NCBI GenBank assembly: GCA_031373235.1
Contig: JANMMK010000048.1
Span: 1-44,942 of the forward strand
From: a bacterium
GTDB lineage: Bacteria > Patescibacteriota > Minisyncoccia > Phycocordibacterales > CAIRYW01
DNA length: 44,942 bases
Reading direction: 5' to 3'
This document shows, piece after piece, positions 1,344 to 44,557 of the stretch (the first letter of the stretch is position 1; each line of letters begins with the position of its first letter). The position numbers and the translations under genes were made by a program. The notes under the pieces were generated by a model, which worked only from the letters and a program-made list of their open reading frames with translations, was not told the DNA's origin and did no database searches.

Positions 1344-2213
1344 ATGAGCGAACAAAACGCCGATATTTCTCGGCACACATACCTCCCCGACACAAAAACA
1401 CCTCTCTCGAGCCACCTGATCGGTGCTCTCCGAGACGGAAAAACATGCGACGAGCGCATCATGCCCGACATGCTCATCCTGCCGACTCAAAAGGTCATCG
1501 GGGTGGCAAGTCCCGCACTCCAAGCACTCTATGCACTACTCAACGCCACCCAACTCGAAGAACAGATCGCGAGAAGCGAGAACGCTCCGCCCAAGTGGCA
1601 CTTTGATGATCAACGGACAATTATCAGTTGGCTCATTGGTGACATCCTACGCGACAACTACGCTTTTGAGCGAACCGAGATCGGCTTCAAGTCTGGCTGG
1701 AACCTGACTGTGCCAAAAAACAGCAAGGAACAAAAAGACCCGAGACGCGCTCACGCTCAACTCAAAGGCCTGCGGGAAAAAATCCTCACCGTCCTCTTGG
1801 GAGAATCGCGTTTTGAGGTAACACTCCAAGCACCAGAAAAGCCTTCGTCTGGAAAGAAATTTTGCGACTCACCGAAAGGAGCACGCGAGTTTCTCTCCTA
1901 TGGCAAGACACTGAAAGAAACAGCAAAGGAGTTTGCCATCAAGGCATCATGTGACTGCGATGACCCGGAGTGCCCAGCAAAAAACATCTTTGTTGGAACT
2001 CCTGCCTCTGAACTTTTCCTCGAAGCAGGAACTGCGATGACTTCATTGGGTTGGCAACTCATCCGAGAGGAAGTGGCAAAGACGCCTGATGCCGACAAAG
2101 AGTTTCGGCGTTGTGGAGGACTTTCACTCTATAACGGCTTTGAGGTCCATTTTGAAAAAAAGGAATCTTCGCCAGGAGGACTGTTTGAAATGCTGAAGAA
2201 CCTCTTCGGCTAA
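1344..2213 (+). CDS. hypothetical protein, visibly GC-rich orphan
   Basis: 289-aa ATG ORF. Clean frame while the overlapping frames are short. Base composition is clearly richer in G+C than the flanks. No motif I recognise. A terminator lies about 110 nt downstream. Confidence 0.7.
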   Translation: MSEQNADISRHTYLPDTKTPLSSHLIGALRDGKTCDERIMPDMLILPTQKVIGVASPALQALYALLNATQLEEQIARSENAPPKWHFDDQRTIISWLIGDILRDNYAFERTEIGFKSGWNLTVPKNSKEQKDPRRAHAQLKGLREKILTVLLGESRFEVTLQAPEKPSSGKKFCDSPKGAREFLSYGKTLKETAKEFAIKASCDCDDPECPAKNIFVGTPASELFLEAGTAMTSLGWQLIREEVAKTPDADKEFRRCGGLSLYNGFEVHFEKKESSPGGLFEMLKNLFG

Positions 2214-3059: not shown

Positions 3060-4469
3060 TTAAAAAGAAGCAAACGGTAGAGATGCAAAAAACTCAACTA
3101 ACCACAGTATGACTGCAATAAGAACTTCCGTAAGAAATCCAAAAATAGTTCCAACAAGAGGAATGCTAGCAAAAATTCCAACCACAATACTTCCCATCAT
3201 CACAAACGGAACAAGTGGCAAGACAAGTATATTTGCAAGTGGTGCAACGAGAGAAAAAGTTCCCATTTTAAAAAGTAAGAAAGGTGCGACTAGCACTTCA
3301 ACAGCAAGCGTCTGGGATAATACTTCTCGTAGAAAAAATTTCTCTGTAATAAAAGTAACTTTTTCTTTTACCCAAGGAGCAATATTAATAATTGCAAAAG
3401 TTGCCAAAAAACTTAACTGGAAAGATGGGTCAAACATCAGTATATATGGATTATGAAGTACCATGATACTAGCAGAAAGTAACAACACTCTATTTTGATT
3501 AATAGATCGATGTGCTAATTTTCCGAAAAGTACGATACTCGCCATAATACTTGCCCGAACTAACGGTGCAGAAGCTCCTGCCATGAGTACAAAAAGCAAG
3601 ACAAAAGTAATAATAATCAAGGTTCTAATCTTGGGCCTTAGAGACCCAAGACTAAATAAAACAAAACTAATGATAAGAGAAATATTGTAGCCAGAAAGAA
3701 CTACAATATGAATAAGTCCAACACGAATAAAATCTTCCTCTAGTTCTTTTGGTAGCCCTCCTTTTCCGGCGATAACCATTCCAGAAGCGAGTGAAGAAGA
3801 AGGTTCTCCAATATATCTTTCGATATTGGAGATAAAAGTATCTTTTAGACTAAACAGAAACTTAAATAAAGACCCTCCTCCCTCTTGACCGACGACTTGT
3901 ATCTCCGGAGAAAACATTTGAAAGTTAATTCCGTCTTTTCTTAGATAGTTTTTGTAATCAAAATCTAGTTCTCTTGTCGTTTTATCATCAACAGTATTCA
4001 AGGTGCCAGAAAGAATTAGCTCATCACCGTAAACTACAGGAGAAAATTGGGAGGTAAAGACAAGTACTTTTTCTTTTGGAATCTTTGCGATCTCTTCCCC
4101 GCTTTCAAGATTATGAACACGAAGTACAATTCTCTTTTTATCATTTTTAACTTGCTCAGAAAACACCTCTCCAATAAGTGATACTTTTGTTTCTGTGAAT
4201 CTGTAGAGAATCTGTGTATCTAATACATACTCTATATAAAAAAACCGAAGTGCCCCTAAAAAGAAAAAACAAACAAAAAGAAGGATCTTAAAAATATCTT
4301 TGTATCGTTCTTTTTCTTTACCAAACTTTTTCCTGACTACGAGTACAAAACCAAAACTAAGATACATGAGCAAAAGAAGTAACAGAGCAGACAAAGAAAA
4401 AGAGGTAAGAGATGCGACTCCTACCCCACCAAGAAAAGAAACTAAACTGTAGACAATAATCCTGTTCAT
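3060..4469 (-). CDS. comEC: ComEC/Rec2 competence channel (OB/DUF4131-like N-terminus plus polytopic Competence domain, no MBL domain)
   Basis: 469 aa and many TM segments. Layout typical of the ComEC membrane domain: N-terminal TM helices, a soluble about 150-aa insert, then a polytopic core. The start overlaps the rnhA stop (ATGA). Confidence 0.88.
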   Translation of the reverse strand: MNRIIVYSLVSFLGGVGVASLTSFSLSALLLLLLMYLSFGFVLVVRKKFGKEKERYKDIFKILLFVCFFFLGALRFFYIEYVLDTQILYRFTETKVSLIGEVFSEQVKNDKKRIVLRVHNLESGEEIAKIPKEKVLVFTSQFSPVVYGDELILSGTLNTVDDKTTRELDFDYKNYLRKDGINFQMFSPEIQVVGQEGGGSLFKFLFSLKDTFISNIERYIGEPSSSLASGMVIAGKGGLPKELEEDFIRVGLIHIVVLSGYNISLIISFVLFSLGSLRPKIRTLIIITFVLLFVLMAGASAPLVRASIMASIVLFGKLAHRSINQNRVLLLSASIMVLHNPYILMFDPSFQLSFLATFAIINIAPWVKEKVTFITEKFFLREVLSQTLAVEVLVAPFLLFKMGTFSLVAPLANILVLPLVPFVMMGSIVVGIFASIPLVGTIFGFLTEVLIAVILWLVEFFASLPFASF

Positions 4470-5257: not shown

Positions 5258-5671
5258 CGTGATGATCATTGCATAAATTGTTCCATTACCATCCATTAGG
5301 TATCGAAAACCAAAATGGTCAGCTTCTCTTGGAAAGAGTCCTCGAACAATCTCAGTTATCAAGGTTTCAACAGTCTCAATCTTTCTGTTGTTGTCGTCAG
5401 AAATACAAAGTGCATTTGCAACAACATGTAGCTTTGACTCTCGGTCGTCAACTACAACACCTTCAAATTGACTGTCGGACTCTGCTCCAATTAGACTAGC
5501 CAAAGTTAAAAGACGAGCAATCATAAGTCTGTGAGATGGAGAGTCTACTGACCCAACCAACCGAGACCCGATTGGAATTCCAGGACCACACAAACGACGA
5601 TCTAACTCTAGCTCTCCTTTTGGAACATCACTCAAAACAGCAAAAAGATCTCGAAAAAAGGGCGTTTTCAT
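5240..5671 (-). CDS. hypothetical protein (143 aa)
   Basis: The track ORF begins with GTG at 5689; the first ATG is at 5669-5671 (MKTPFFRDLF...). No recognised motif. Confidence 0.55.
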   Translation of the reverse strand: MKTPFFRDLFAVLSDVPKGELELDRRLCGPGIPIGSRLVGSVDSPSHRLMIARLLTLASLIGAESDSQFEGVVVDDRESKLHVVANALCISDDNNRKIETVETLITEIVRGLFPREADHFGFRYLMDGNGTIYAMIITRHPLD

Positions 5672-5796: not shown

Positions 5797-7503
5797 TTAT
5801 AAAACATCTACGATACGAATCCTTACCCGACTTCCCCCAAAAAGTGCTCGCTCAACATGGCCAACAATATCTTGTTTTGTTTCTATATTTATTTTTTGAA
5901 TTAACTCTTCGGACGCAAAAAAAGAAATAGCCTCGATGGTTTTTCCATCTGGTTTTTTTATTTTAATCTTTAAGTGATTTTTTTCTTTGCCAAAAAATTC
6001 GGTCCCAAGTATATAGGCTTCTTTTATTAAAAAAAGCGGTTTTAGATTTCCAATTCCAAAAGGAGCAAGTTTTTCGACATCATACAACATCCTGTCAGAG
6101 AGCATCTCCGGTATGATCTCCATGTCTATCAAGGTTTCTACCGTCTCTGCTTTATTCTCCAAAGAATTAAATGCGTATTCAATTTCGTCTTGTAATAAAT
6201 GCACAGTATCGTAGGAAACAGAAAACCCTCCGGCTCCGTGGTGGCCCCCAAAACCCGAAAGGACTCCTTCTTTCACCAAAGCCATTAAGTCAGTCACACT
6301 GACCCCAGGAACACTTCTACATGAACCCTTTAAGCTTTCCGCAATACCTTCTCGCCCCCACAAGAATACGGGCTTTCCTTCTTTCTCAACTAAAGACCCA
6401 GCCACTAATCCTAAAATGGAAGGCTTCCAAGAGGGGTCACCTGCGACAATAACTTTATTCCGAAAATCCGGAGCATACTTCGCTTCAATAGACTTTTTTA
6501 CTTCTTTTGTAAGGTGTGCCGTCTGAACCTTTCTCTGATTATTTGCTTCCTCCAAAAAAGCCACCAACTCTCCCGCCCTCACCTCATCTTCGCAGGTAAG
6601 TAATTCAAAGGCATATTGTGAGACACCCATTCTCGAAGCAGCGTTGATTCTTGGTGCAATCATGAAACCAATATCATCTTCTGTGAGCGTTCTTTGATTT
6701 ATCTTGAGCTTGCGAAGTAGTTTTATGATTCCTATTCGAGGACTTTTTTGAAGAACTAAGAGCCCGTACTTTGCAAAAACTCTATTCTCTCCACGAAGTG
6801 GCACCATGTCAGACAACGTTGCGATACCTACCATATCAAGAAGCCATTTTTCCCATCCGAGCGCCACATCCAAACGATCATGCGCAAGCAGTCCTTCCAC
6901 CAACTTAAAAGCAACACCTGCCCCACAAAGCATTTTTTCTGGATAGTCTGGAGAAGTCTTCGGGTTAATGATTGCAAAAGCCTCTGGAACACTATCACCT
7001 GGCTCATGGTGGTCAGTGATGACGACATCAATACCGAGAGACATGGCAAGCGAAACCTCTTCCTTATCAGCAATACCGCAGTCAACTGTAATTAAAAGCG
7101 TAACACCCTCTTTTTTAAACTTTTTAATCGCGCCCTCATTCAAGCCGAATCCTTCGTTATGTCTGTGTGGAATATAATTACTAAAGTTTTTAAATCCAAT
7201 TTTCTTAAAGTAATCATGAAGAACTACTGCGCCCGGAATACCATCAGCATCGTAGTCAGAGAAAATAACAATCTTTTCATTATTTTTGTGTGCAGTAAAA
7301 ATTCTCTCTGCCACCTTTTTCATATCATCAAATAAAAATGGATCGTGTCTTAAATCGTAACCCGGGGACAAAAATACTTCCGCTTCTTCTTTTGTGGTTA
7401 TACCGCGCTTATGAAGTAATAGTGCAACTGTGTCAGAAACATGTTCCAACCTTTTTCTTTCTTCCTTTAGTAGCAAAGATGCCGGAGTATAACTTTTTTG
7501 CAT
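5797..7503 (-). CDS. recJ: single-stranded-DNA-specific exonuclease RecJ
   Basis: 568 aa. DHH-family motifs FSDYDADGIPG, VITDHHEP and GGHHGAGG, with RecJ-like length and architecture. Confidence 0.92.
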   Translation of the reverse strand: MQKSYTPASLLLKEERKRLEHVSDTVALLLHKRGITTKEEAEVFLSPGYDLRHDPFLFDDMKKVAERIFTAHKNNEKIVIFSDYDADGIPGAVVLHDYFKKIGFKNFSNYIPHRHNEGFGLNEGAIKKFKKEGVTLLITVDCGIADKEEVSLAMSLGIDVVITDHHEPGDSVPEAFAIINPKTSPDYPEKMLCGAGVAFKLVEGLLAHDRLDVALGWEKWLLDMVGIATLSDMVPLRGENRVFAKYGLLVLQKSPRIGIIKLLRKLKINQRTLTEDDIGFMIAPRINAASRMGVSQYAFELLTCEDEVRAGELVAFLEEANNQRKVQTAHLTKEVKKSIEAKYAPDFRNKVIVAGDPSWKPSILGLVAGSLVEKEGKPVFLWGREGIAESLKGSCRSVPGVSVTDLMALVKEGVLSGFGGHHGAGGFSVSYDTVHLLQDEIEYAFNSLENKAETVETLIDMEIIPEMLSDRMLYDVEKLAPFGIGNLKPLFLIKEAYILGTEFFGKEKNHLKIKIKKPDGKTIEAISFFASEELIQKINIETKQDIVGHVERALFGGSRVRIRIVDVL

Positions 7504-9199: not shown

Positions 9200-9949
9200 T
9201 TATATAGAATCAATCAACAAAGAAATACTTTTTATATCCAGACTCGCCCTCCCGATAAGCAGGCCATTTACACCACCCTCAGTCAAAATACCCTTAGCAT
9301 TTTTTTGATCAACAGATCCACCGTATAAAATAGGAACTTTATGCGCAAGCGCATTTCCATACTTTGTCATTAATACTTTCCTAATGAAAATAGTAGTTTC
9401 TTGTATCAGGTCATTCTCCATGACTCCACTTCCTAAAGCACCAATGGCCCAGACTGGTTCATATGCTAGAACAATATCTTTTATTTGTTTTTTAGAAACA
9501 CCTGCAAGCGAAGCATCTATCATTTCTCTGATATCGTTAAAAAAATTACCTTCTTTGTCTCGCAGACTTTCTCCCACACAGATAATTGGAGTGAGCTTCG
9601 CCTTAAGTGCACGAGAAACTTTTTCGGCCACCAAACTTCCACTCTCACCTTGGCCCCTTCTTTCAGAATGACCGACAATAACATACTTAACACCGAGAGA
9701 CTGGAGCATTTCGGCACCAACCTCTCCTGTATGAGAACCTTTCTCAAAAGATGAAACATCTTGCGCACCAAGTAAAACTTTTTTATCTTTTGAAGTAAGC
9801 AGTCCCAGAAAAGAAGTTGGTGGACAAATAACTACACTGAGCTTCTTACTTTTTTTGACGGCCTGTTTTTTTGTTTCATTATATAAAGTCTTTGCCACAA
9901 CGATACTCTGTGGATTCATTTTCCAGTTACACGCAATAATATATTTCAT
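9200..9949 (-). CDS. tpiA: triosephosphate isomerase
   Basis: 249 aa. NWKMN, VGHSERR, AYEPVWAIG and YGGSV motifs. 5-nt gap to pgk. Confidence 0.95.
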   Translation of the reverse strand: MKYIIACNWKMNPQSIVVAKTLYNETKKQAVKKSKKLSVVICPPTSFLGLLTSKDKKVLLGAQDVSSFEKGSHTGEVGAEMLQSLGVKYVIVGHSERRGQGESGSLVAEKVSRALKAKLTPIICVGESLRDKEGNFFNDIREMIDASLAGVSKKQIKDIVLAYEPVWAIGALGSGVMENDLIQETTIFIRKVLMTKYGNALAHKVPILYGGSVDQKNAKGILTEGGVNGLLIGRASLDIKSISLLIDSI

Positions 9950-9992
9950 AAGAGATATTCTACCTGAACAAACTCATTCTAAGAAGGGGTAC

Positions 9993-11999: not shown

Positions 12000-12551
12000 T
12001 TAATTATAAGAACCCCTTAAGACGCCCGTCGTATAAAAGTCACTAACTATTTCAGGAAAGCTTGTACTACTAATAGTAAGCTCCACTTTTAAAGTTTCAC
12101 TAGTAGTCGTAGCGGACCTCCTTAATCGAAGGGCATCAATAGTCGTTCTTTTCGAAGTTACGGGCCCCAAAAGAACATCGTCCTCATCAACCATCACCTG
12201 TCCATCAACTACATAAAACCTCACTGTGTGTGGAACACCAGAAACAATTTTATTTAACTTAATAATTCCAATCTCTGGATCACACCCCGCTGCAAAAGGA
12301 GGGTCATACAAACAAGAAGCTGAGGTATCGACAGAAGTAGCAGAACGCACCTCTCGCATCATCCTGTCGAGCGCAACATTGGCAGAGTTTTCTATCTGCC
12401 CTCTACTCTTCGCTTTTTTATAGGTCTTCATTATTTCAACTGATGAATACACAATTGCAGAAAATAAAAAAGAAACGATGGCCACATAAATAATAGCCTC
12501 CACTAGAGAAAAACCAGACTGTTTTTTAGTTTGAAAAAATGTTTGATACAT
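12000..12551 (-). CDS. prepilin-type N-terminal cleavage/methylation domain protein (pseudopilin)
   Basis: MYQTFFQTKKQSG|FSLVEAIIYVAIVSFLF is a class III signal. The track start at 12602 is GTG; ATG chosen at 12549-12551. The 26-nt overlap with the upstream pseudopilin is plausible. Confidence 0.78.
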   Translation of the reverse strand: MYQTFFQTKKQSGFSLVEAIIYVAIVSFLFSAIVYSSVEIMKTYKKAKSRGQIENSANVALDRMMREVRSATSVDTSASCLYDPPFAAGCDPEIGIIKLNKIVSGVPHTVRFYVVDGQVMVDEDDVLLGPVTSKRTTIDALRLRRSATTTSETLKVELTISSTSFPEIVSDFYTTGVLRGSYN

Positions 12552-13014
12552 ATGATTCCATTGTTTTAGTAGTTGTAGCACCTCCATCATTCCACGAAAC
12601 ACTCACCACAACTTTCTTGGTGTTTACGTCGGTTGTTCCTCCTGAAGAAACTATGTTATTACTCCCGTCGCGACCAACAGCCGATAAGACAAATGTTCTA
12701 TCAAACTTGCCATCAATAAAAGTATTCGTAGTCGTCGCCTGCCATCTTCCCGATGTCCATGCAAGCCTATACGAAGTGCCAACGGTTAGATTGCCGATGT
12801 GTGTAGCCCAGCCAAAATCTCTCATGTTTTTTAATGCCTCATTTCCTTCTTCGGCCAAAAAAGCAGACTGAAGATACGCAGTGTTTTTTAGGGTAGATTT
12901 TAATGCAATAGCATACGAAGAAAAAATTGTTGTAACTGCCAAAAGAAAAATTGAAGAAGCTATAACAATTTCAATAAGTGAAAAGCCTTTTTCTTTAAAA
13001 GAAAAATTAAACAT
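12526..13014 (-). CDS. prepilin-type N-terminal cleavage/methylation domain protein (pseudopilin)
   Basis: MFNFSFKEKG|FSLIEIVIASSIFLLAV. Confidence 0.8.
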   Translation of the reverse strand: MFNFSFKEKGFSLIEIVIASSIFLLAVTTIFSSYAIALKSTLKNTAYLQSAFLAEEGNEALKNMRDFGWATHIGNLTVGTSYRLAWTSGRWQATTTNTFIDGKFDRTFVLSAVGRDGSNNIVSSGGTTDVNTKKVVVSVSWNDGGATTTKTMESYVSNIFSN

Positions 13015-13024
13015 AAATACCTAT

Positions 13025-13492
13025 TTATTGTACCTCAACAAAACCAGTTCCGTAAATATTAATAGTTTTCTTTGATCCATCAGAATGCCTCACTTCAAAT
13101 GTACCCGTCGCACTCGGCTCTCCTGAGAGTCGATAAAAATAAAAATTCGATAGGCCGTTTGTTAGTGAGACGTTCCAAATTTTGTCTTTTGAAGAAAGTG
13201 TATATACAGTTGAAGTTGCAGGGGATGCCGCGTTTGTGCCATAAAATATGGTAACTGTGGTTGATGCAAAACTAACCCCATGTTCTTTATTTGAAAGAGA
13301 GTTAATCGCATTACTTCTTGATTTATTGATATAAGAAACTACAATCTCTGCTTCTTTATCAAGAGACTGACTATTAGAGAGTGAAGAAAAAATACCCACC
13401 GAAATAGAAGTTACGATGCCTATGATCGCAATAACCATTAAGACTTCTATCATTGAGATACCGGTATTGTTTTTTTTAAAATTTGAAAACAT
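13025..13492 (-). CDS. prepilin-type pseudopilin, GspH/FimT-like
   Basis: MFSNFKKNNTG|ISMIEVLMVIAIIGIVTSI; size and N-terminus fit the GspH/FimT class. Confidence 0.78.
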   Translation of the reverse strand: MFSNFKKNNTGISMIEVLMVIAIIGIVTSISVGIFSSLSNSQSLDKEAEIVVSYINKSRSNAINSLSNKEHGVSFASTTVTIFYGTNAASPATSTVYTLSSKDKIWNVSLTNGLSNFYFYRLSGEPSATGTFEVRHSDGSKKTINIYGTGFVEVQ

Positions 13493-13503
13493 GTATTAAA
13501 TAA

Positions 13504-14709
13504 TTAAATAGTATCAAGCACAGAATACATTGGAGTAATCATCGAAACCGCAAAAAATCCTACTCCAAGTCCTATAATAACCATCAAAAAAGGCTCGATG
13601 ATTTGGGACATATCTTTAGTTTGTTGGTCTACCTCATTCTCATAAAAATCAGCAACCTCCTTAAACATTTCAGAAATATTTCCCGTCTCTTCGCCAACAC
13701 TTGCCATCTCAGTAATAAAAGGAGGGTAAAGCTTTGGATGAAGAGCAAACACACCAGACATCGGCTGACCCTTTTGAATAACATCTGAAACATCCTTCAT
13801 AACTCTTTTATAATAAATATTTTGGAGTACCTCTCCGGTAATTTCTGAAGCTCGCACTACTTCAACTCCCGATGAAAGGAGTGACGCAAATGTCCTTGCT
13901 GTTCTTGCAGTATTAGTCTCGACAATAATATTTCCCACGACTGGAATCTTTAAAATAAGTTTATGAATTATTTTTTTTCCTACTTCTTTTTTTGAAGCAA
14001 CATAAAGAAAACTTCCAGCCCCAAAAACAAGAAGAATGGCAATTAAATAATGTGCCCGCAAAAAATCACTGAGTCCTATGACCACCCTTGTCGTGAAAGG
14101 AAGTTCAACATTTAATTCCTTAAATGTTGAAGTCAAACTCGGAACCACTAACGTTAACATCAAAATACCAATACCAATCATCACTGTAATAATAATACCA
14201 GGATACATCATTGCCCCCCTTACCTTCCGAAGAAGTGTATAGTTTTTGTCCATCTGATCTCCAACAAGCTTCAAAGATTCTGTAAGAGACCCTGATTCTT
14301 CACCGGCTTTCACCATCGAAGTAAATAAAGAATTAAAAGAAGATGGGTACTTTTCTAATGACTCATAGAGCGTCTTCCCTCCCGCAACAGTGCCAATAAT
14401 ATCTGAGAGCATACTTTTTAGTTTCTTCGAAGTAGCTTGTCTTTCCATTACTTGCAGTGCCCTTGTTAAAGAAAGTCCCGCCTTAAGCATGGCACTTAAG
14501 TTTCTAGCAAAAATTATTTTTTGATGAATATTTAGTGAACCGCCAAAAGAAAACAGTTCCATCTTTTTCTTTTGCACTTCTTCCTTAGAAGAAATAAGTG
14601 TAAAATTTTGTTTCTTAAGATCCTTATATAGCGCAAATTTATCAACAGCAGAAAAAGATCCTTCTCCTGTAACTCCTTCGGCTGTCTTATATGTAACTTT
14701 ATAATTCAT
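13504..14709 (-). CDS. pilC: type IV pilus / T2SS platform protein (GspF/PilC family)
   Basis: 401 aa with a duplicated T2SS-F domain layout and 3 TM segments. Directly downstream of the ATPase. Confidence 0.9.
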   Translation of the reverse strand: MNYKVTYKTAEGVTGEGSFSAVDKFALYKDLKKQNFTLISSKEEVQKKKMELFSFGGSLNIHQKIIFARNLSAMLKAGLSLTRALQVMERQATSKKLKSMLSDIIGTVAGGKTLYESLEKYPSSFNSLFTSMVKAGEESGSLTESLKLVGDQMDKNYTLLRKVRGAMMYPGIIITVMIGIGILMLTLVVPSLTSTFKELNVELPFTTRVVIGLSDFLRAHYLIAILLVFGAGSFLYVASKKEVGKKIIHKLILKIPVVGNIIVETNTARTARTFASLLSSGVEVVRASEITGEVLQNIYYKRVMKDVSDVIQKGQPMSGVFALHPKLYPPFITEMASVGEETGNISEMFKEVADFYENEVDQQTKDMSQIIEPFLMVIIGLGVGFFAVSMITPMYSVLDTI

Positions 14710-14735
14710 TCTAAAATATAAATTTTGAAGTTGAC

Positions 14736-16487
14736 CTATTCTGATACCACTCGAAGCACTTCTTCAATAGTCGTAAGTCCTTTCACTGCACTCAAAATAC
14801 CGTCCTCGATCATAGTGATCATACCCTCTTTACGTGCTTGTGCCTCAATATCACTAGATGTCTTTCCTTCCATAACCATTTGCCGGAGCGTTGGAGTGAC
14901 TTTGAGCACCTCATGAATTCCTACTCGAGAGTGAAACCCGTCAGGATATTCTTTTGAAGGATTCGGTTTCCAAAACGGCACCTCATTCCAAGTAGCTTTT
15001 GGCTTCACTACTTTTTCTTCCACGAGTACTTCAAGTACTCTGTCTAAATTTATTTTTTTACCAAGTTGAGCCAGCTCTGCTTTTGTAAGAAAAAAACTTT
15101 CCTTTGGTTTTTGAAGTCTTCTAATAAGTCTTTGACCAATAATCACCTGGAGTGTTGATACTAAAAGAAACGGCTCCACTTTCATATCAAGTAAACGAGG
15201 GATGGCACCCGCTGCGGAGTTGGTGTGCAGTGTCGAAAGCACTAAGTGCCCAGTCAAAGCCGCGTTGATACCAAGTGACGCTGTTTCATTGTCTCGAATC
15301 TCTCCCACCATAATAATATCTGGGTCTTGTCTTACTAGTGAGCGCAGTCCGTTAGCAAAAGTAAATCCGATTTCTGGCTTTACCTGTGTTTGATTGATCC
15401 GTTTCATCTGATATTCAACAGGATCTTCTACTGTTGAAATATTTACATCCGGAGTATTAAGGAGGTCGAGCACTGTATATAGTGTTGTTGATTTTCCAGA
15501 ACCAGTTGGCCCTGTAGTCAAAATCATTCCTGTCGTGAGTTTTGTTGCTTCATGAATATCATCAAGTCCTTTACCGTGAAACCCAAGTCCCTCGAGTGTA
15601 AAGCCTGAAACACTTTCCTTCAAAAGACGCATTACTGTCTTTTCTCCAAAATAAGTTGGCAGTATTGAAACTCGAAACGCAACCTTCTCACCGCCCATAT
15701 CAACCTTAAACCGCCCATCTTGCGGTAAACGCTTTTCATCAAGCTTGAGTGCTGCCAAAACTTTAATTCTCGCGGTGATACCAGAACCAGCTACTTTTGG
15801 CAGAATCATCGCATCGTGAAGCAAGCCGTCGATCCGATACCTCACAACCACTTCAGCTTCGTAAGGCTCAATATGAATATCTGAAGCGTCTTGAATGATG
15901 GCGTGTTTAAGTAGTGTTTCTACAATTCTCACTACCGGTAGTTCCTCTGCAATCTTTTTAAGATCATCGACAGACTGCTCACTACCGTCATCCATCGTGA
16001 TAGATTTCAAAGTAGCAGATTCCTTGGTAATAATGTCACCGAAATCCGCCTTCAAACTTTTTTGATACTGAAGAAGTGTTGCCTTCATGGACTCAACTGA
16101 AGTCAACCTTGGCAAAATTCTTAGGTTTGTTTTTTTCTTTACGAAATCAATTGCCGAAAGATCATCGGTGTCGAGCATCGCCACCTCAAGAGAATCGATA
16201 TTTTTTTTAAACGCTACAATATTATGGTTTCTTGCAATAGGCTCAGGAATCAAAGAAAGAGTTTCATAATCAAGTTTTTGACTTTTTAAATCAACAAAAG
16301 GAATTCCCAAAATATATGCTTGCATTCGCCCAAGATCATCGCTAGAAATTTTTCCTTGGTTAACTAAAATCTCCGAGAGGTCTTTTCCTTTTTCAAGTGC
16401 TTCTTTTTTTGCACTATCAATATCAACTTTAGCTACCAGTCCGGAGTCAATGATAAAAATTTCAAGTTGTTGTTGATTGATGAACAT
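14736..16487 (-). CDS. pilB: type IV pilus assembly ATPase (GspE/PilB family)
   Basis: Walker A GPTGSGKST, Asp box, Walker B DPDIIMVGEIRD and His box LVLSTLHTN, with an N-terminal T2SSE_N-like domain. The track start at 16520 is GTG inside a terminator hairpin; ATG at 16485-16487 (MFINQQQ). Confidence 0.92.
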   Translation of the reverse strand: MFINQQQLEIFIIDSGLVAKVDIDSAKKEALEKGKDLSEILVNQGKISSDDLGRMQAYILGIPFVDLKSQKLDYETLSLIPEPIARNHNIVAFKKNIDSLEVAMLDTDDLSAIDFVKKKTNLRILPRLTSVESMKATLLQYQKSLKADFGDIITKESATLKSITMDDGSEQSVDDLKKIAEELPVVRIVETLLKHAIIQDASDIHIEPYEAEVVVRYRIDGLLHDAMILPKVAGSGITARIKVLAALKLDEKRLPQDGRFKVDMGGEKVAFRVSILPTYFGEKTVMRLLKESVSGFTLEGLGFHGKGLDDIHEATKLTTGMILTTGPTGSGKSTTLYTVLDLLNTPDVNISTVEDPVEYQMKRINQTQVKPEIGFTFANGLRSLVRQDPDIIMVGEIRDNETASLGINAALTGHLVLSTLHTNSAAGAIPRLLDMKVEPFLLVSTLQVIIGQRLIRRLQKPKESFFLTKAELAQLGKKINLDRVLEVLVEEKVVKPKATWNEVPFWKPNPSKEYPDGFHSRVGIHEVLKVTPTLRQMVMEGKTSSDIEAQARKEGMITMIEDGILSAVKGLTTIEEVLRVVSE

Positions 16488-16503
16488 AATATCTATTAGT
16501 ATA

Positions 16504-16540
16504 ACAAAAAAACACCACACAATATAATTGTATGGTGTTT
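16504..16540 (-). terminator. intrinsic terminator after the 359-aa secreted protein gene
   Basis: AACACCATA...TGTGGTGTT stem read on the - strand, followed by a U7 run. Confidence 0.65.
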
Positions 16541-37285: not shown

Positions 37286-37318
37286 CAAAAAACCTCGCAT
37301 TATGTGCGAGGTGTTTTT
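37286..37318. terminator. second, bidirectional hairpin terminator
   Basis: ACCTCGCA-TTATG-TGCGAGGT flanked by an A run and a T run. Confidence 0.6.
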
Positions 37319-37565
37319 AGGCTCTTTCTCTTACTTCCTTTAGGAGGTCTCTCAGCGCAGCACTTTGCTCTGGACTCAAATCACCCACTCCAAACAAAGC
37401 CTCCTCTGGTGGAACCTCTGGAATTTCTTCTGGTGTATTTTGTTGTGGTTCAGATTCGAAGTTCATAGTATCTAAAATTTAAGTGGATAAATATTCTAGC
37501 ATAAAGAAAGAAGGGAGTAAAAAGAAATTTTTATAATTTATGAAGTTTTTAATATTTTAAGAATG

Positions 37566-37693
37566 TGTGGGTAGAGAGAATCGGTCACAACTCTTTTGCT
37601 TTGCAAAAGGTCGCGACCCCGCCTCGCACCCGGCTAAGCGCCCGACTACGCTTCGCTCCGTGTGCTCCGGCTTTCGATTCTCTCTACCTCGCA
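37566..37693. repeat. structured element bounded by inverted copies of the tRNA-Gly(UCC) 3' end (possible ncRNA or miniature mobile element)
   Basis: Left arm TGTGGGTAGAGAGAATCG matches 37741-37758 at 17/18 positions. Right arm TTCGATTCTCTCTACC(T)CGCA is the reverse-complement copy. A 14-bp perfect closing stem is possible. The interior is GC-rich with the hairpin CTTTTGC-TTT-GCAAAAG. Confidence 0.6.
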
Positions 37694-37701
37694 TCGACAA
37701 T

Positions 37702-37733
37702 AAAAAAACACCACACTAAGTGTGGTGGTTTTT
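37702..37733. terminator. bidirectional terminator between the element and tRNA-Gly(UCC)
   Basis: A7, CACCACAC-TAA-GTGTGGTG, then G and T5. Confidence 0.75.
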
Positions 37734-37740
37734 AGTCGAG

Positions 37741-37811
37741 TGCGGGTAGAGAGAATCGAACTCTCGTCTTCACATTGGAAGTGTGACATTCTACCACTAA
37801 ACCATACCCGC
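37741..37811 (-). tRNA. tRNA-Gly (anticodon UCC)
   Basis: Manual fold of GCGGGTA-TG-GTTT-AGTGGTA-GAAT-G-TCACA-CTTCCAA-TGTGA-AGAC-GAGAG-TTCGATT-CTCTC-TACCCGC-A. 71 nt; CCA not encoded. Confidence 0.9.
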
Positions 37812-42922: not shown

Positions 42923-42994
42923 CGGAGTATGGTGTAACGGCTAGCATACTCGCTTTGGGAGCGAGCAGTCTGGGTTCGAATCCCAGTACTCCGA
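42923..42994 (+). tRNA. tRNA-Pro (anticodon UGG)
   Basis: Manual fold: acceptor CGGAGTA/TACTCCG, anticodon arm CTCGC-TTTGGGA-GCGAG, T arm CTGGG-TTCGAAT-CCCAG, discriminator A. CCA not encoded. Confidence 0.9.
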
Positions 42995-43029
42995 CAATAG
43001 AGTAAGAAAAGTGTATAAACACCTTTCGG

Positions 43030-43134
43030 CTGGGATTCGAAATCCTTTTGAGCATAATTTATGAGGTATCCCGAGATAAATTATCCAAAAGGCCTACTGG
43101 TCATGTAATGACCGAAAATCCCAGTACTCCGACA
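43030..43134. repeat. structured element bounded by an inverted and a direct copy of the tRNA-Pro 3' end
   Basis: 43030-43041 CTGGGATTCGAA is the exact reverse complement of 42975-42986. 43117-43134 is an exact 18-nt direct repeat of 42979-42996. Nested perfect stems lie between them. Confidence 0.6.
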
Positions 43135-43145
43135 TGAACAGAAAG

Positions 43146-43174
43146 AAAAAACACTCCTCCATGGAGTGTTTTTT
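43146..43174. terminator. bidirectional terminator (tRNA-Pro unit / yraN)
   Basis: A run, AACACTCC-TCCAT-GGAGTGTT, then a T run. Confidence 0.75.
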
Positions 43175-43175
43175 C

Positions 43176-43562
43176 TTATCCAGGTAAGAGTTGATTCTCA
43201 AGAAACTTTACAATAGACTTTTTTCTTTCGATGTCTATGTAAAGCAAAACAACATCAAACTGCCAGTTTTCTATTTTATGTTTAGAAATATAGATAGATA
43301 TAACCTTGGATAGCTTCGAAAGCTTATCTTTTGTAATATTTTCAGAAGGGTCAATCTCCTTTGTCTCATGTAAAACATCACCTACTATTTCACGTGAAAC
43401 AGACTTAACCTCTATAAAGTGTAAAAAACCTTGTTTTTGAGCAATAATATCTATTTCACCCCATTTTGTATAGTAATTCCTATGAATAACACTAAAATTA
43501 TGTTTCTTAAGAAACAATTCTGCTATATCTTCGCCTAATTTGCCAACTTTACCTAAATTCAT
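43176..43562 (-). CDS. yraN: YraN family (UPF0102) endonuclease-like protein
   Basis: GKLGEDIAELFLKKHNFSVIHRNYYTKWGEIDIIAQKQGFLHFIEVKS is the typical YraN core. Confidence 0.82.
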   Translation of the reverse strand: MNLGKVGKLGEDIAELFLKKHNFSVIHRNYYTKWGEIDIIAQKQGFLHFIEVKSVSREIVGDVLHETKEIDPSENITKDKLSKLSKVISIYISKHKIENWQFDVVLLYIDIERKKSIVKFLENQLLPG

Positions 43563-44272: not shown

Positions 44273-44433
44273 CTAGAGAGAATCGCCCTCGAAACTTATT
44301 ATGTCGTCACATAATAAGTTTCTGCCCCACAAGAGGACTTCTATTTTTATAAATAAAAATAAGTCGGGCACCGGTTTCTGCTTCGCTTGTTGCTACAAGC
44401 TCAAGTGCAGAAACCGTTCGATTCTCTCTGGCC
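44273..44433. repeat. structured element bounded by inverted copies of the tRNA-Gly(GCC) 3' end
   Basis: Left arm CTAGAGAGAATCG matches 44492-44504 at 12/13 positions. Right arm GTTCGATTCTCTCTGGCC (44416-44433) is the exact reverse-complement copy of the tRNA 3' part. The interior holds four hairpins, including perfect 13-bp and 10-bp stems. Confidence 0.6.
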
Positions 44434-44439
44434 TGCTAC

Positions 44440-44485
44440 AAAAATATAATAAGCTGAATGCTTTCGCATCCAGCTTATTATTTTT
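44440..44485. terminator. bidirectional terminator between the element and tRNA-Gly(GCC)
   Basis: ATAATAAGCTG...CAGCTTATTAT (11 bp, plus an inner ATGC/GCAT) flanked by an A run and a T run. Confidence 0.75.
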
Positions 44486-44486
44486 G

Positions 44487-44557
44487 TGCGGCCAGAGAGA
44501 ATCGAACTCTCATCTAATCCTTGGCAAGGACTCATTTTACCACTAAACTATGGCCGC
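44487..44557 (-). tRNA. tRNA-Gly (anticodon GCC)
   Basis: Manual fold of GCGGCCA-TA-GTTT-AGTGGTA-AAAT-G-AGTCC-TTGCCAA-GGATT-AGAT-GAGAG-TTCGATT-CTCTC-TGGCCGC-A. 71 nt. Confidence 0.9.

Follow-up and report, generated by a model that had tools for sequence, protein, structure and literature searches.

In the sublocation scheme that Williams is said to have set out in 2002, the T-loop is reportedly a crossover site for the tyrosine integrases of genomic islands and prophages that target tRNA and tmRNA genes. Host RNA genes also have site-specific, non-autonomous retroelements that share their transcripts or descend from them, the R2 SIDE elements and tRNA-derived SINEs (PMC3414825). The window analysed here, a 44.9-kb stretch of DNA (~38% GC) from a Patescibacteria (CPR) genome, holds three tRNA genes, and after each of them come a spacer or a terminator, then X', which is the tRNA 3' end copied in inverted form, a core of 75-130 nt and X, a direct copy of the same end, with X' and X able to form a closing helix (P1) around the core. 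The whole cassette measures ~110-220 nt, and the tRNA genes beside the cassettes are intact, with Rfam RF00005 scores of 62-75 bits. An earlier note on this DNA, made from the sequence alone, had listed the repeats, helices and terminators involved, and every one of these features is present where it was placed. At the first locus the sequence copied as X and X' is the last ~20 nt of tRNA-Gly(UCC), from T-loop to discriminator, and the parts are as follows.

37741-37811, minus strand: tRNA-Gly(UCC), called by ARAGORN and by Rfam RF00005 (74.5 bits).
37694-37740, minus strand: trailer with a bidirectional intrinsic terminator, its stem at 37709-37727 found on both strands by the terminator scan.
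37673-37693, minus strand: X', the 5' strand of P1, with one extra base (a bulge), from the inverted repeat, the sequence and the fold.
37584-37672, minus strand: type-1 core, from a match to covariance model (CM) R2 at 37573-37685 (57.6 bits), a fold z of -7.06 and family covariation.
37566-37583, minus strand: X, the 3' strand of P1, 17/18 identical to the tRNA end, from the direct repeat, the sequence and the fold.

As a direct repeat, 37565-37583 matches 37740-37758 at 95%, and from its sequence this X can be read as a displaced or duplicated tRNA end. The perfect inverted pair of 14 bp (37570-37583 / 37675-37688) extends to a helix of ~18 bp in sequence and fold if one bulged base and one mismatch or wobble are allowed. 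Together, the tRNA 3' end, the terminator and X' make a long imperfect palindrome centred on the trailer/terminator (inverted repeat 37673-37711 / 37722-37760). Within the core, helix P2 (~37621-37671) has a conserved CGGAGC / GCGAG internal loop and helix P3 (~37584-37618) runs from GGUCGCGA to GUGACC; the inner hairpin CTTTTGC-TTT-GCAAAAG reported previously is confirmed in the sequence. The element is 58% GC against ~38% for the window. The second locus lies on the plus strand.

42923-42995, plus strand: tRNA-Pro(UGG), called by ARAGORN and Rfam.
43026-43041, plus strand: X' (tcgg + CTGGGATTCGAA), from the inverted repeat, the sequence and the fold.
43042-43116, plus strand: type-2 core, from a match to CM R1 at 43030-43122 (80 bits, the sequence itself being in the training set).
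43117-43134, plus strand: X, an exact 18-nt copy of the tRNA-Pro 3' end (direct repeat with 42979-42996, 100%).
43143-43177, plus strand: hairpin and T-run after the element (inverted repeat 43143-43157 / 43163-43177, and sequence).

Here X' has a 4-nt deletion in its acceptor part, with an inverted 12-mer at 43030-43041. P2 is a long hairpin with an AGC/C internal loop (~43044-43092), followed by the junction CUACUG and by P3, a small hairpin with a UGUAA-type loop (~43098-43114). The hairpin that ends the list looks, from its sequence, like an intrinsic terminator, is absent from the output of the consensus terminator scan, and comes after the element rather than between it and tRNA-Pro. The third locus is again on the minus strand.

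44487-44557, minus strand: tRNA-Gly(GCC), called by ARAGORN and Rfam.
44439-44486, minus strand: trailer and terminator between tRNA-Gly(GCC) and the element, from the inverted repeat and the terminator scan.
44416-44438, minus strand: X' (as RNA, GUAGCAGGCCAGAGAGAAUCGAA), from the inverted repeat and the sequence.
44286-44415, minus strand: enlarged type-1-like core, from a match to CM R2 at 44275-44429 (30.3 bits, E = 7.5e-4, outside the training set).
44273-44285, minus strand: X, shortened to the T-loop and part of the T-stem, from inverted and direct repeats and the sequence.

This X' opens with the GUAGC motif that is seen in a subfamily without the P1a hairpin described below. An inverted 18-mer (44416-44433 / 44490-44507) relates it to the tRNA, while the closing pair (44275-44285 / 44419-44429) uses C-G and G-U pairs on the tRNA-sense strand; the core consists of P2 (44372-44416), an AT-rich hairpin and a further hairpin at 44291-44322. 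The earlier note had taken the three interiors to be unrelated. For loci 1 and 3 this is wrong, since both match the same covariance model, R2 (57.6 and 30.3 bits), and only the core of locus 2 is of a second type (R1, 80 bits). An assembly artefact, on the other hand, can be ruled out: a Logan assembly made independently (L071) has an identical locus 1, a variant form of it occurs both in a MAG from NCBI and in a further Logan assembly (L070, L072), and the family is also present in a complete chromosome record, OZ246398.1 (L008).

We scanned the 300 nt on either side of 166 tRNAs, from the window and 69 related loci, for stretches of 12 nt or more copied from the final 24 bases of the tRNA. 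Inverted copies lay downstream of 18 of the 166 and upstream of none; direct copies lay downstream of 24 and upstream of two. Permuted-tail controls gave far lower counts, 1.35 for inverted and 3.9 for direct copies, and the layout, which was present at ~20% of the 166 tRNAs, is not a matter of chance, as had been argued before. All type-1 CM matches (17/17 with E < 0.01 in 1.09 Mb) share the strand of a tRNA and lie directly 3' of it, and so do those of type 2 (9/9). Metagenomic pattern matches fell within 400 nt after a same-strand tRNA in 68 of 121 cases and covered 20 anticodon classes. In L126 and L159, tmRNA genes also bear cassettes whose arms match the tmRNA end, and the cores recur across independent metagenomes. 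The cassettes are a widespread Patescibacteria family.

The cores belong to at least three conserved structural types, with type 1 at loci 1 and 3, type 2 at locus 2 and type 3 in related genomes only. Pairing in the fold holds for 88.1% of cells, against 70.0% in shuffled data, and the covariation score is 0.496 against 0.189 (none of 500 shuffles scored as high), with slid controls at 0.06-0.13; in type 2, covariation is found in P3 and at the base of P2. The cassettes demonstrably fold on the tRNA-sense strand into a three-way junction of P1, P2 and P3 that is closed by X' and X, often with an additional hairpin, P1a, and this fold is demonstrably under purifying selection. These properties bear on the idea that the cassettes are a non-functional by-product of template switching in replication at two palindromes, that of the terminator and that of the T-loop (TTCGAA), with nothing selected. 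Such an origin would suit the single long quasi-palindrome formed by tRNA end, terminator and X', and the variable length of the direct repeats, which sometimes include the terminator. However, at least three core families are conserved across distant genomes and >20 tRNA species with compensatory changes, their loops and internal loops are conserved too, and the same cores turn up in independent metagenomes. The covariation result largely refutes this explanation, to which we attach hardly any probability, although template switching could still account for the generation or repair of the arms.

The tRNA-sense strand gave the more stable fold in 26 of 29 elements and in 43 of 46 of a later set, and it carried more G-U pairs than the opposite strand (65 vs 34 in the 29 elements, 142 vs 95 in the 46). 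Within the P1 helices there were 19 G-U pairs against 4 A-C mismatches. G-T pairs are tolerated in DNA hairpins too, and the folded strand may be either RNA or single-stranded DNA. An antisense-strand RNA was first suggested by U-G wobbles in the three window copies, and was overturned by the 29 and then the 46 elements; kissing of the P1a loop (CUGC) with the P2 loop (AGCA) was likewise rejected, both loops being common and showing no co-variation.

P1 always keeps its T-arm part, while its acceptor part is often degenerate, as at window loci 2 and 3. Where X and the tRNA mismatch, X' complements the tRNA base at 35 positions and the distal X at 15, and the conserved P1a splits X' into two tRNA-specific parts. 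A terminator comes between tRNA and cassette in only 10 of 32 cases, loci 1 and 3 of the window among them. The earlier note had suggested a non-coding RNA with an acceptor/T-arm mimic, and of this the non-coding fold stands, being conserved, covarying, on the sense strand and closed by X' and X, whereas the mimicry is weakened by the degeneracy of the acceptor part. One way to view the cassette is as a resident, non-mobile host ncRNA or structured tRNA trailer, in which X' would pair with X or, as the earlier note had also considered, with the tRNA 3' half, and which might act in trailer processing, in control of tRNA maturation or as a mimic or decoy of the tRNA end. The strong purifying selection on the fold, the tRNA orientation with its probable co-transcription, the likeness of P1 to the acceptor/T-arm helix and the preference of X' for the tRNA base over the distal X (35 to 15, at differing positions) are all consistent with this.

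The turnover of the cassettes, however, argues against residence. They are patchy at orthologous tRNAs (tRNA-Gly(UCC) sites are empty, hold different types or hold two elements), and just ~20% of tRNAs have one. An indel of 142 nt, flanked by X (CGATTCTCTCTACC), sets the near-identical strains L070 and L072 apart from L071 and the window. L006, L002, L160 and L172 have tandem arrays, and truncated units are seen as well as whole ones. In L173, a unit consisting of X_Gly, the same spacer, X', P1a and core lies behind tRNA-Pro and is 93% identical to the tRNA-Gly home copy; its left joint is a chimeric T-arm (5' strand from Pro, 3' strand from Gly), its X' is mismatched at this non-cognate tRNA, and its homology stops in the T-loop at the distal X, so that both joints lie in the T-loop. 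L008 has one near-identical core at tRNA-Gly and at tRNA-Pro, with arms that fit each tRNA. The acceptor part of P1, as noted, is often degenerate, and since the cores are old but most arms have not diverged from the local tRNA, the insertions would seem to be young. With both sides in view, we consider a resident RNA a poor candidate. The strain indel, the tandem arrays, the unit copied between tRNAs and the tmRNA sites support instead a miniature mobile element that targets tRNA 3' ends, which the earlier note had listed among its hypotheses.

In most cases the distal X reproduces the gene exactly from C56 to its last base, with 1-2 nt more. We agree with the previous objection that a plain att scar leaves the inverted copy unexplained; yet the direct copy, running from T-loop to last gene base, is att-like. 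Direct repeats range from 11 to >60 nt in length, and in L131, L136 and L172 some continue through the entire terminator, which on sequence grounds looks like local duplication and not like insertion of a foreign att-bearing circle. We saw no excised circle and, at the tRNA-proximal joint, no clear-cut pair of empty and filled sites, and a search for strain variants of loci 2 and 3 by exact-protein matching gave just a 1-kb contig or nothing.

The reading that we favour, at roughly even chances, is that of a non-coding, non-autonomous cassette 3' of tRNA and tmRNA genes that is inserted by T-loop recombination and probably expressed in the tRNA trailer. The moving unit would extend from T-loop to T-loop on the same strand as the gene, and would comprise, in order, a copy of the gene 3' end (which would become the working tRNA end), a trailer that often includes a terminator, X' and the folded core. 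We infer that it inserts by recombination with joints in the nearly universal T-loop sequence, either as a Campbell-type insertion of a small circle or by an equivalent copy-choice event; with the joints placed there, the tRNA would stay intact and its former 3' end would be left downstream as X. The fold would most likely be made as RNA inside the tRNA's own 3' trailer, because two-thirds of the copies have no intervening terminator and there is no room for a promoter, and P1 would imitate the T-arm/acceptor helix. After a move to another tRNA the cassette would still fold, because 6-8 bp at the inner end of P1 consist of T-loop sequence common to almost all tRNAs, and templated correction inside the palindrome may then fit the outer X' to its new neighbour. 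Since the cassette encodes nothing, it would have to be moved in trans, by some recombinase or by host recombination.

Some observations sit awkwardly with a cassette of this kind. Templated correction around the interleaved P1a is an assumption, and a terminator separates tRNA from cassette at window loci 1 and 3. There are also 5'-truncated remnants, comprising only the 3' end of the core and X (L070, L145), that would not be expected from simple Campbell insertion. Such remnants, in which the 3' end and X are kept, would be more at home in a retro-mobile element of SINE or R2-SIDE type, co-transcribed with the tRNA, whose RNA fold would be bound by a reverse transcriptase acting in trans, whose 3' X would pair with a nicked tRNA gene and prime target-primed reverse transcription there, and whose template jumps would occur at T-loop microhomology. 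Retro-mobility would also accommodate reliance on the host gene's promoter in place of one of its own, a conserved fold that is strand-specific, direct repeats with a fixed start and variable length, and the copy in L173, which takes in the 3' part of the upstream tRNA much as a read-through transcript would. A CCA follows five of ~35 distal X copies but not the corresponding working genes; however, CCA after X is exceptional and an original, CCA-encoding gene end explains it equally well. Moreover, X' copies the genomic trailer and not the CCA-bearing mature tRNA (L019, L009), there are no A-tails, and no reverse transcriptase is found in the window or among the recurring families of 148 flanking ORFs. 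Retroposition of the non-LTR type is not known from bacteria, which adds to the case against, and retro-mobility seems to us decidedly improbable.

A third possibility is that X' and X rebuild a duplex tRNA end for a tyrosine recombinase, making the cassette a folded single-stranded DNA recombination site akin to integron attC or CTX-phage attP(+). The hairpin stem does reproduce the duplex target, one arm only has bulged bases or the P1a branch, there is a strand-specific bias, the order is array-like (core site, content, inverted site, variable structure, direct site), and single-stranded DNA is imported by competence machinery of the host. However, the interior is conserved and covaries, with conserved loops, unlike the freely variable part of attC; the outer ends lack R''/R' consensus boxes, the conserved T-loop part lying innermost instead; neither ORF cassettes nor an integron integrase are nearby; and no copies were found in viral contigs. 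We think it very unlikely that the cassettes are sites of this sort.

At the gathering threshold, Rfam 15 passes only tRNAs in the window, and E-value scans of the three loci give generic hairpins far below threshold; a match to a known family, which would have spoken against the earlier note, did not turn up. Over seven related loci, Rfam finds only tRNAs and one group I intron, and a full-text literature search returned no description of such elements. No plausible coding ORF exists in the element, the overlapping ORFs being short (≤56 aa) on both strands. Integrases, transposases and reverse transcriptases are absent from the 44.9-kb window and from the Pfam families matched by at least two of the 148 flanking ORFs. 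The sole enzyme lead is a serine-recombinase Zn-ribbon remnant in L170.

A number of other candidates were tried and rejected. Autonomous, protein-coding versions would have a distant direct copy of a tRNA end enclosing genes, and none was found at 173 tRNA loci; in the metagenome matches, long distances from X' to X reflected arrays or the following tRNA. Pattern scans of viral contigs for phage-borne or plasmid-like free forms gave nothing or chance matches inside ORFs, and the window had no match in a phage collection. An inverton is contradicted by a core orientation relative to the tRNA that is constant in all CM matches, with the sense strand favoured in 43/46; a retroviral-type primer-binding site by an X' that copies the genomic trailer without a complement of CCA; and an IS91-type GAAC target by the variable base that follows TCGAA. 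A MITE does not suit inverted segments that differ with each tRNA, direct repeats of 11 to >60 nt and the lack of any autonomous partner seen, nor integron attC outer ends made of tRNA acceptor sequence with the GTTCGA-like part innermost, no ORF cassettes and no IntI in the window.

The Patescibacteria account for a large part of bacterial diversity, and their tiny genomes are regarded as poor in repetitive and mobile DNA. About one in five of their tRNA genes surveyed here, along with tmRNA genes, bears a conserved, folded, non-coding insert that is not found in Rfam or in searchable literature. If this is mobile DNA, it would be a case of minimal, enzyme-free targeting of the tRNA T-loop, which no other genomic site matches for safety and universality, and would explain how a single core is retargeted to many tRNAs; if it is RNA, it would be a new and abundant ncRNA class linked to tRNA 3' processing. 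The family in either case supplies covariance models and a marker of strain variation for uncultured lineages, and it connects the structure of tRNA genes with recombination and RNA folding in a way that can be tested. A bolder reading, which we hold to be unlikely, is of a new kind of bacterial mobile element: a protein-less replicator of structured RNA or single-stranded DNA that rides tRNA/tmRNA units, homes to the T-loop through a copy and an anti-copy of the target 3' end and can be re-programmed to any tRNA. It could, for example, be a SINE-like retroelement, the first from bacteria, or a hairpin att site that templates itself.

Compared with tRNA/tmRNA islands, the cassettes share the 3' gene-end targets, the restoring copy borne by the element, the direct repeat from T-loop to gene end and tandem accretion. 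However, islands are kilobases long and have an integrase, whereas the cassettes are 110-220 nt with no gene, carry an inverted target copy and a conserved folded core, and use one core family for >20 tRNA species where an island serves one. Like MITEs and REPINs, they are small, non-coding, multi-copy, hairpin-forming and patchy, and would be mobilised in trans; unlike them, their inverted ends are copies of the local target and not element sequence, they are found strictly at tRNA/tmRNA 3' ends, they have RNA-like covariation inside, and they are without a known transposase or RAYT partner. With attC and CTX-phage attP(+) they have in common two inverted site copies ~90 nt apart that fold on one strand into a duplex-like site, bulged bases and an array-like order, but they lack R''/R' boxes and a nearby IntI, their interior is conserved, and their target is a tRNA gene in place of attI or dif.

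The R2 SIDEs and tRNA-derived SINEs resemble the cassettes in having no promoter of their own, probable co-transcription with the target gene, a conserved structure, probably of RNA, and 5'-truncated copies with 3' ends kept. The cassettes differ in being bacterial, in having no reverse-transcriptase partner found and no A-tail, and in arms that copy genomic sequence. Lastly, as with Y RNA/YrlA, mascRNA and the sRNAs of 3' external transcribed spacers, a cassette RNA would arise from or beside a tRNA transcript, with a helix that imitates part of a tRNA. Unlike these, the cassettes are without an Rfam match, their mimic is a copy of the neighbouring tRNA of which only the T-arm part is always kept, and they are gained and lost like mobile DNA.

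The window is a chromosomal CPR segment and not phage, as judged from its gene content (RNase Y, HU, ClpP, NusA, trigger factor, PGK, TIM, ComEC, RecJ and a type IV pilus block), the relatives of its RNase Y and the absence of any phage match to the window. Those relatives (n=69, the closest at 80% identity), through which we gathered 69 related loci, come mostly from Patescibacteria MAGs that carry labels such as Paceibacterota, Saccharibacteria, Taylor-, Nomura- and Yanofskybacteria, with a few unclassified or from other phyla. One related Paceibacterota contig, L066, carries a group I intron (13651-13883, plus strand; Rfam RF00028, 77.7 bits). In the window itself, an Rfam scan at gathering thresholds returned nothing beyond the three tRNA genes. 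The earlier note had described, 3' of each of these, an inverted copy of the tRNA 3' end (X'), an insert (core) and a direct copy (X), and we located all three parts at all three loci:

37741-37811, minus strand: tRNA-Gly(UCC), locus 1
37709-37727: stem of the bidirectional terminator in the locus-1 trailer, between tRNA and X'
37673-37693: locus-1 X', inverted copy of the tRNA 3' end
37584-37672: locus-1 core, 89 nt, GC-rich
37566-37583: locus-1 X, direct copy
43026-43041, 43042-43116, 43117-43134: X', core and X of locus 2 (tRNA-Pro)
44416-44438, 44286-44415, 44273-44285: X', core and X of locus 3 (tRNA-Gly(GCC))
3060-4469, 5797-7503, 12000-16520, minus strand: ComEC, RecJ and the type IV pilus block (pilin-like ORFs, PilC/T2SSF, PilB/T2SSE)

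In tRNA orientation, locus 1 reads tRNA, trailer with terminator, X', core and X, and its element order is repeated at loci 2 and 3. At loci 1 and 3 the tRNA end, terminator and X' make up one long imperfect palindrome; locus 2, unlike locus 1, has a terminator-like hairpin 3' of the element. The short motifs (T)CTGTAA and TTTGTAGC recur at element boundaries (L006, L070, L092 and L145 among the related and metagenomic contigs; window 44434-44438), with TTTGTAGC at the 5' start of X' in copies lacking P1a, an extra hairpin within X'. Between HU and the locus-1 element lies a conserved 49-aa ORF (37317-37466, minus strand), also called as a gene in the near-identical strains L070-L072, with no Pfam domain on record.

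We scanned 166 tRNAs with full flanks, from the window and the 69 loci, for copies of 12 nt or more from the final 24 tRNA bases within 300 nt. Inverted copies were found 18 times downstream and 0 times upstream, and direct copies 24 and 2 times, against 1.35 (inverted) and 3.9 (direct) in permuted-tail controls; the same scan showed no copies of the 5' end or the middle of the tRNA. The inverted copy lies 15-90 nt from the tRNA and the direct copy about 115-200 nt. An independent assembly, L071, matches the window locus base for base, and a variant form of the locus is common to L070 and L072. The layout is therefore neither chance, as the earlier note had judged, nor the assembly artefact that it had considered, and it recurs 3' of tRNAs in the relatives where the note had proposed to look. 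In contig L044 (about 5830-6112, minus strand) a 74-nt unit, made up of the final 24 nt of tRNA-Gly(GCC) and a 50-nt spacer, occurs three times in tandem, without inverted copy or core; such plain direct repeats at the end of a tRNA are a separate phenomenon.

Reading about 30 instances, we distinguished at least three core types. Type 1, which includes window loci 1 and 3, follows the pattern GAAUCGAA-NNN-CGGAGC-hairpin-GCGAG-NCGG-(G/U)G-GGUCGNGA...GUGACC-CGAUUC; type 2, to which locus 2 belongs, combines a long hairpin, its internal loop AGC/CC, with RYACUG and, after that, a small covarying hairpin whose loop is of the UGUAA type; type 3 is absent from the window. P1a, often GCGAGCCAACUGCUUGGCUCGC, divides X' in many copies exactly at the acceptor/T-stem boundary. 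Covariation, a check put forward in the earlier note, proved strong in an alignment of 27 type-1 sequences from distinct tRNAs and metagenomes: 88.1% of cells were paired (70.0% shuffled), 181 carried double changes (60 shuffled), and the covariation score was 0.496 against 0.189, a value reached by 0 of 500 shuffles, with slid controls at 0.06-0.13. Type 2 likewise covaries. It is this covariation that makes it less likely that the repeats are a by-product of template switching, formed free of selection. A covariance model of type-2 cores (R1) gave 9 matches, only to cores beside tRNAs, and one of type-1 cores (R2) gave 17 with E < 0.01 in 1.09 Mb, each directly downstream of a tRNA and sharing its strand. 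R2 matched window locus 1 at 37573-37685 (57.6 bits) and locus 3, which was outside the training set, at 44275-44429 (30.3 bits).

Metagenome contigs scanned with the type-1 pattern gave at least 120 loci. Among the 121 matches listed, 68 have a tRNA at most 400 nt upstream on the same strand, these tRNAs span at least 20 anticodon classes (Gly, Arg, Glu, Pro, Trp, His, Ala, Cys, Lys, Met, Val), and the arms match the local gene (compare the Gly-type X' behind tRNA-Pro in contig L173, below). Several further listed matches lie 3' of tmRNA genes, classic targets of tRNA-integrating elements, and have the tmRNA end as their arms:

L126, 944-1337, plus strand: tmRNA gene (ARAGORN) followed by a type-1 element, arms copying the tmRNA 3' end
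L159, 572-953, minus strand: tmRNA gene (ARAGORN), same arrangement

By eye, L183 looks alike, though ARAGORN called no tmRNA in it. The remaining listed matches are contig edges, later array units, chance matches inside ORFs and a few orphans (L081, L170). The L081 orphan (about 9390-9500, plus strand) sits next to HU (9618-9974, minus strand), as in the window, and 3.8 kb from tRNA-Gly(UCC) (5479-5552, plus strand), with housekeeping genes in between; elements can thus outlast adjacency to their tRNA. No Rfam family matched the elements of the window and seven related loci, so the refuting outcome named in the earlier note, a hit to a known family, did not arise there. The feature thus belongs to a large family, of which we found no description in the searchable literature.

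The window copies had given a first impression of a fold on the strand antisense to the tRNA, which sense-strand stability in larger sets overturned. The tRNA-sense strand is the more stable in 26 of 29 curated elements (G-U pairs 65 vs 34) and in 43 of 46 metagenomic ones (mean difference -8.7 kcal/mol; G-U pairs 142 vs 95). Within the T-arm part of P1, the X'/X closing helix, non-Watson-Crick positions on the sense strand are G-U in 19 cases and A-C in 4. An A-to-G change in X' of the near-identical strain L070 yields a sense-strand G-U, and in P1a an A-U pair of one L173 paralogue is replaced by a compensatory G-C pair in the other. The fold is therefore under selection on the tRNA-sense strand, as RNA or as single-stranded DNA. 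Downstream of X, terminator-like hairpins occur in 6 of 41 cases, compared with 2 of 89 control windows. Since one separates tRNA and cassette in only 10 of 32 cases, and there is no room for a promoter, the simplest reading is that the cassette would be co-transcribed in the tRNA trailer.

Orthologous tRNA-Gly(UCC) sites are empty (L004, L012) or hold type 1 (window, L005), type 2 (L007, L008), type 3 (L001) or two units (L006). What sets L070 and L072 apart from the window and L071 is a 142-nt segment with the 14-nt repeat CGATTCTCTCTACC on either side; this added piece (L070 3630-3770, minus strand), after the locus-1 element, is a 5'-truncated copy of a locus-3-like core, so cores of different tRNA loci recombine within one population. 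Arrays may mix core types (L002, L172), repeat identical tandem units (L160) or form a chain of short 3' remnants with X after each (L145), and in L008 a near-identical core stands at both tRNA-Gly and tRNA-Pro with arms specific to each. The clearest case of movement is L173, where a type-1 unit at tRNA-Gly(UCC) has a 93%-identical copy 3' of tRNA-Pro, consisting of the Gly 3' end, the same 25-nt spacer, a Gly-type X', P1a and core. At the left joint of this copy the T-arm is a chimera (CCGAG from Pro, T-loop, CTCCC from Gly). Homology ends within the distal X, in its T-loop; that X is of the Pro type, and the Pro trailer comes after it. From these joints, the moving unit runs from T-loop to T-loop, and the inner end of both arms is therefore fixed and the outer ends variable. 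The distal X is usually an exact gene copy from C56 to the last base, plus 1-2 nt; an identity block running to the gene end is typical of elements integrating into tRNA genes. In L082, L099, L151, L156 and L197, CCA follows the distal X though not the working tRNA gene, either as an original CCA-encoding gene end or as a trace of a processed-RNA intermediate. The elements are a non-coding, structured family specific to tRNA and tmRNA 3' ends, with turnover of copies, and this turnover makes a purely resident host ncRNA less likely.

No ORF within the cassette is plausibly coding. Genes for an integrase, transposase or reverse transcriptase are missing from the window, as are large repeat-bounded islands at the tRNAs of the window and related loci; no true copies were found in viral contigs. 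The families that recur in the 148 ORFs lying up to 3 kb from 77 metagenomic copies (RNase Y, trypsin-like protease, EF-Tu, ClpP, SmpB, SecDF, CCA-adding-type enzyme) are housekeeping genes. The sole enzyme lead is a recombinase Zn-ribbon ORF in L170 (268-1023, minus strand), probably the C-terminal remnant of a serine recombinase, between tRNA-Gly(UCC) and the orphan type-1 element (about 1750-1860, plus strand) whose arms match that tRNA, 1.4 kb away.

We infer that insertion would proceed by recombination inside the conserved T-loop, so that the tRNA stays intact and its former end remains behind as X. The element would be expressed as a portion of the tRNA trailer, X' would be matched to the local tRNA by templated correction in two nested palindromes (tRNA end-terminator-X' and X'-core-X), and P1 would mimic the T-arm and acceptor. 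The 5'-truncated remnants, direct repeats including whole terminators, conserved P1a interleaved with tRNA-specific segments and occasional CCA after the distal X do not sit neatly with this picture, and keep alive both an RNA-mediated (retroposon-like) route and a folded single-stranded DNA att-site route. The ComEC, RecJ and type IV pilus set is DNA-uptake machinery typical of Patescibacteria, and may be relevant if cassettes spread as imported single-stranded DNA. Two of the earlier note's three hypotheses find support in combination, a miniature mobile element from turnover and, in part, an ncRNA with a tRNA-end mimic from the covarying fold; the third, a trailer pairing with the tRNA 3' half, is not among them. 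We think it unlikely that the elements are a categorically new, protein-less, self-retargeting mobile element. They lack features that define integrase islands, MITEs and attC sites, and they match no Rfam family, but in the way they work they appear closest to a miniature element that integrates into tRNA genes and carries a structured, RNA-like cargo.
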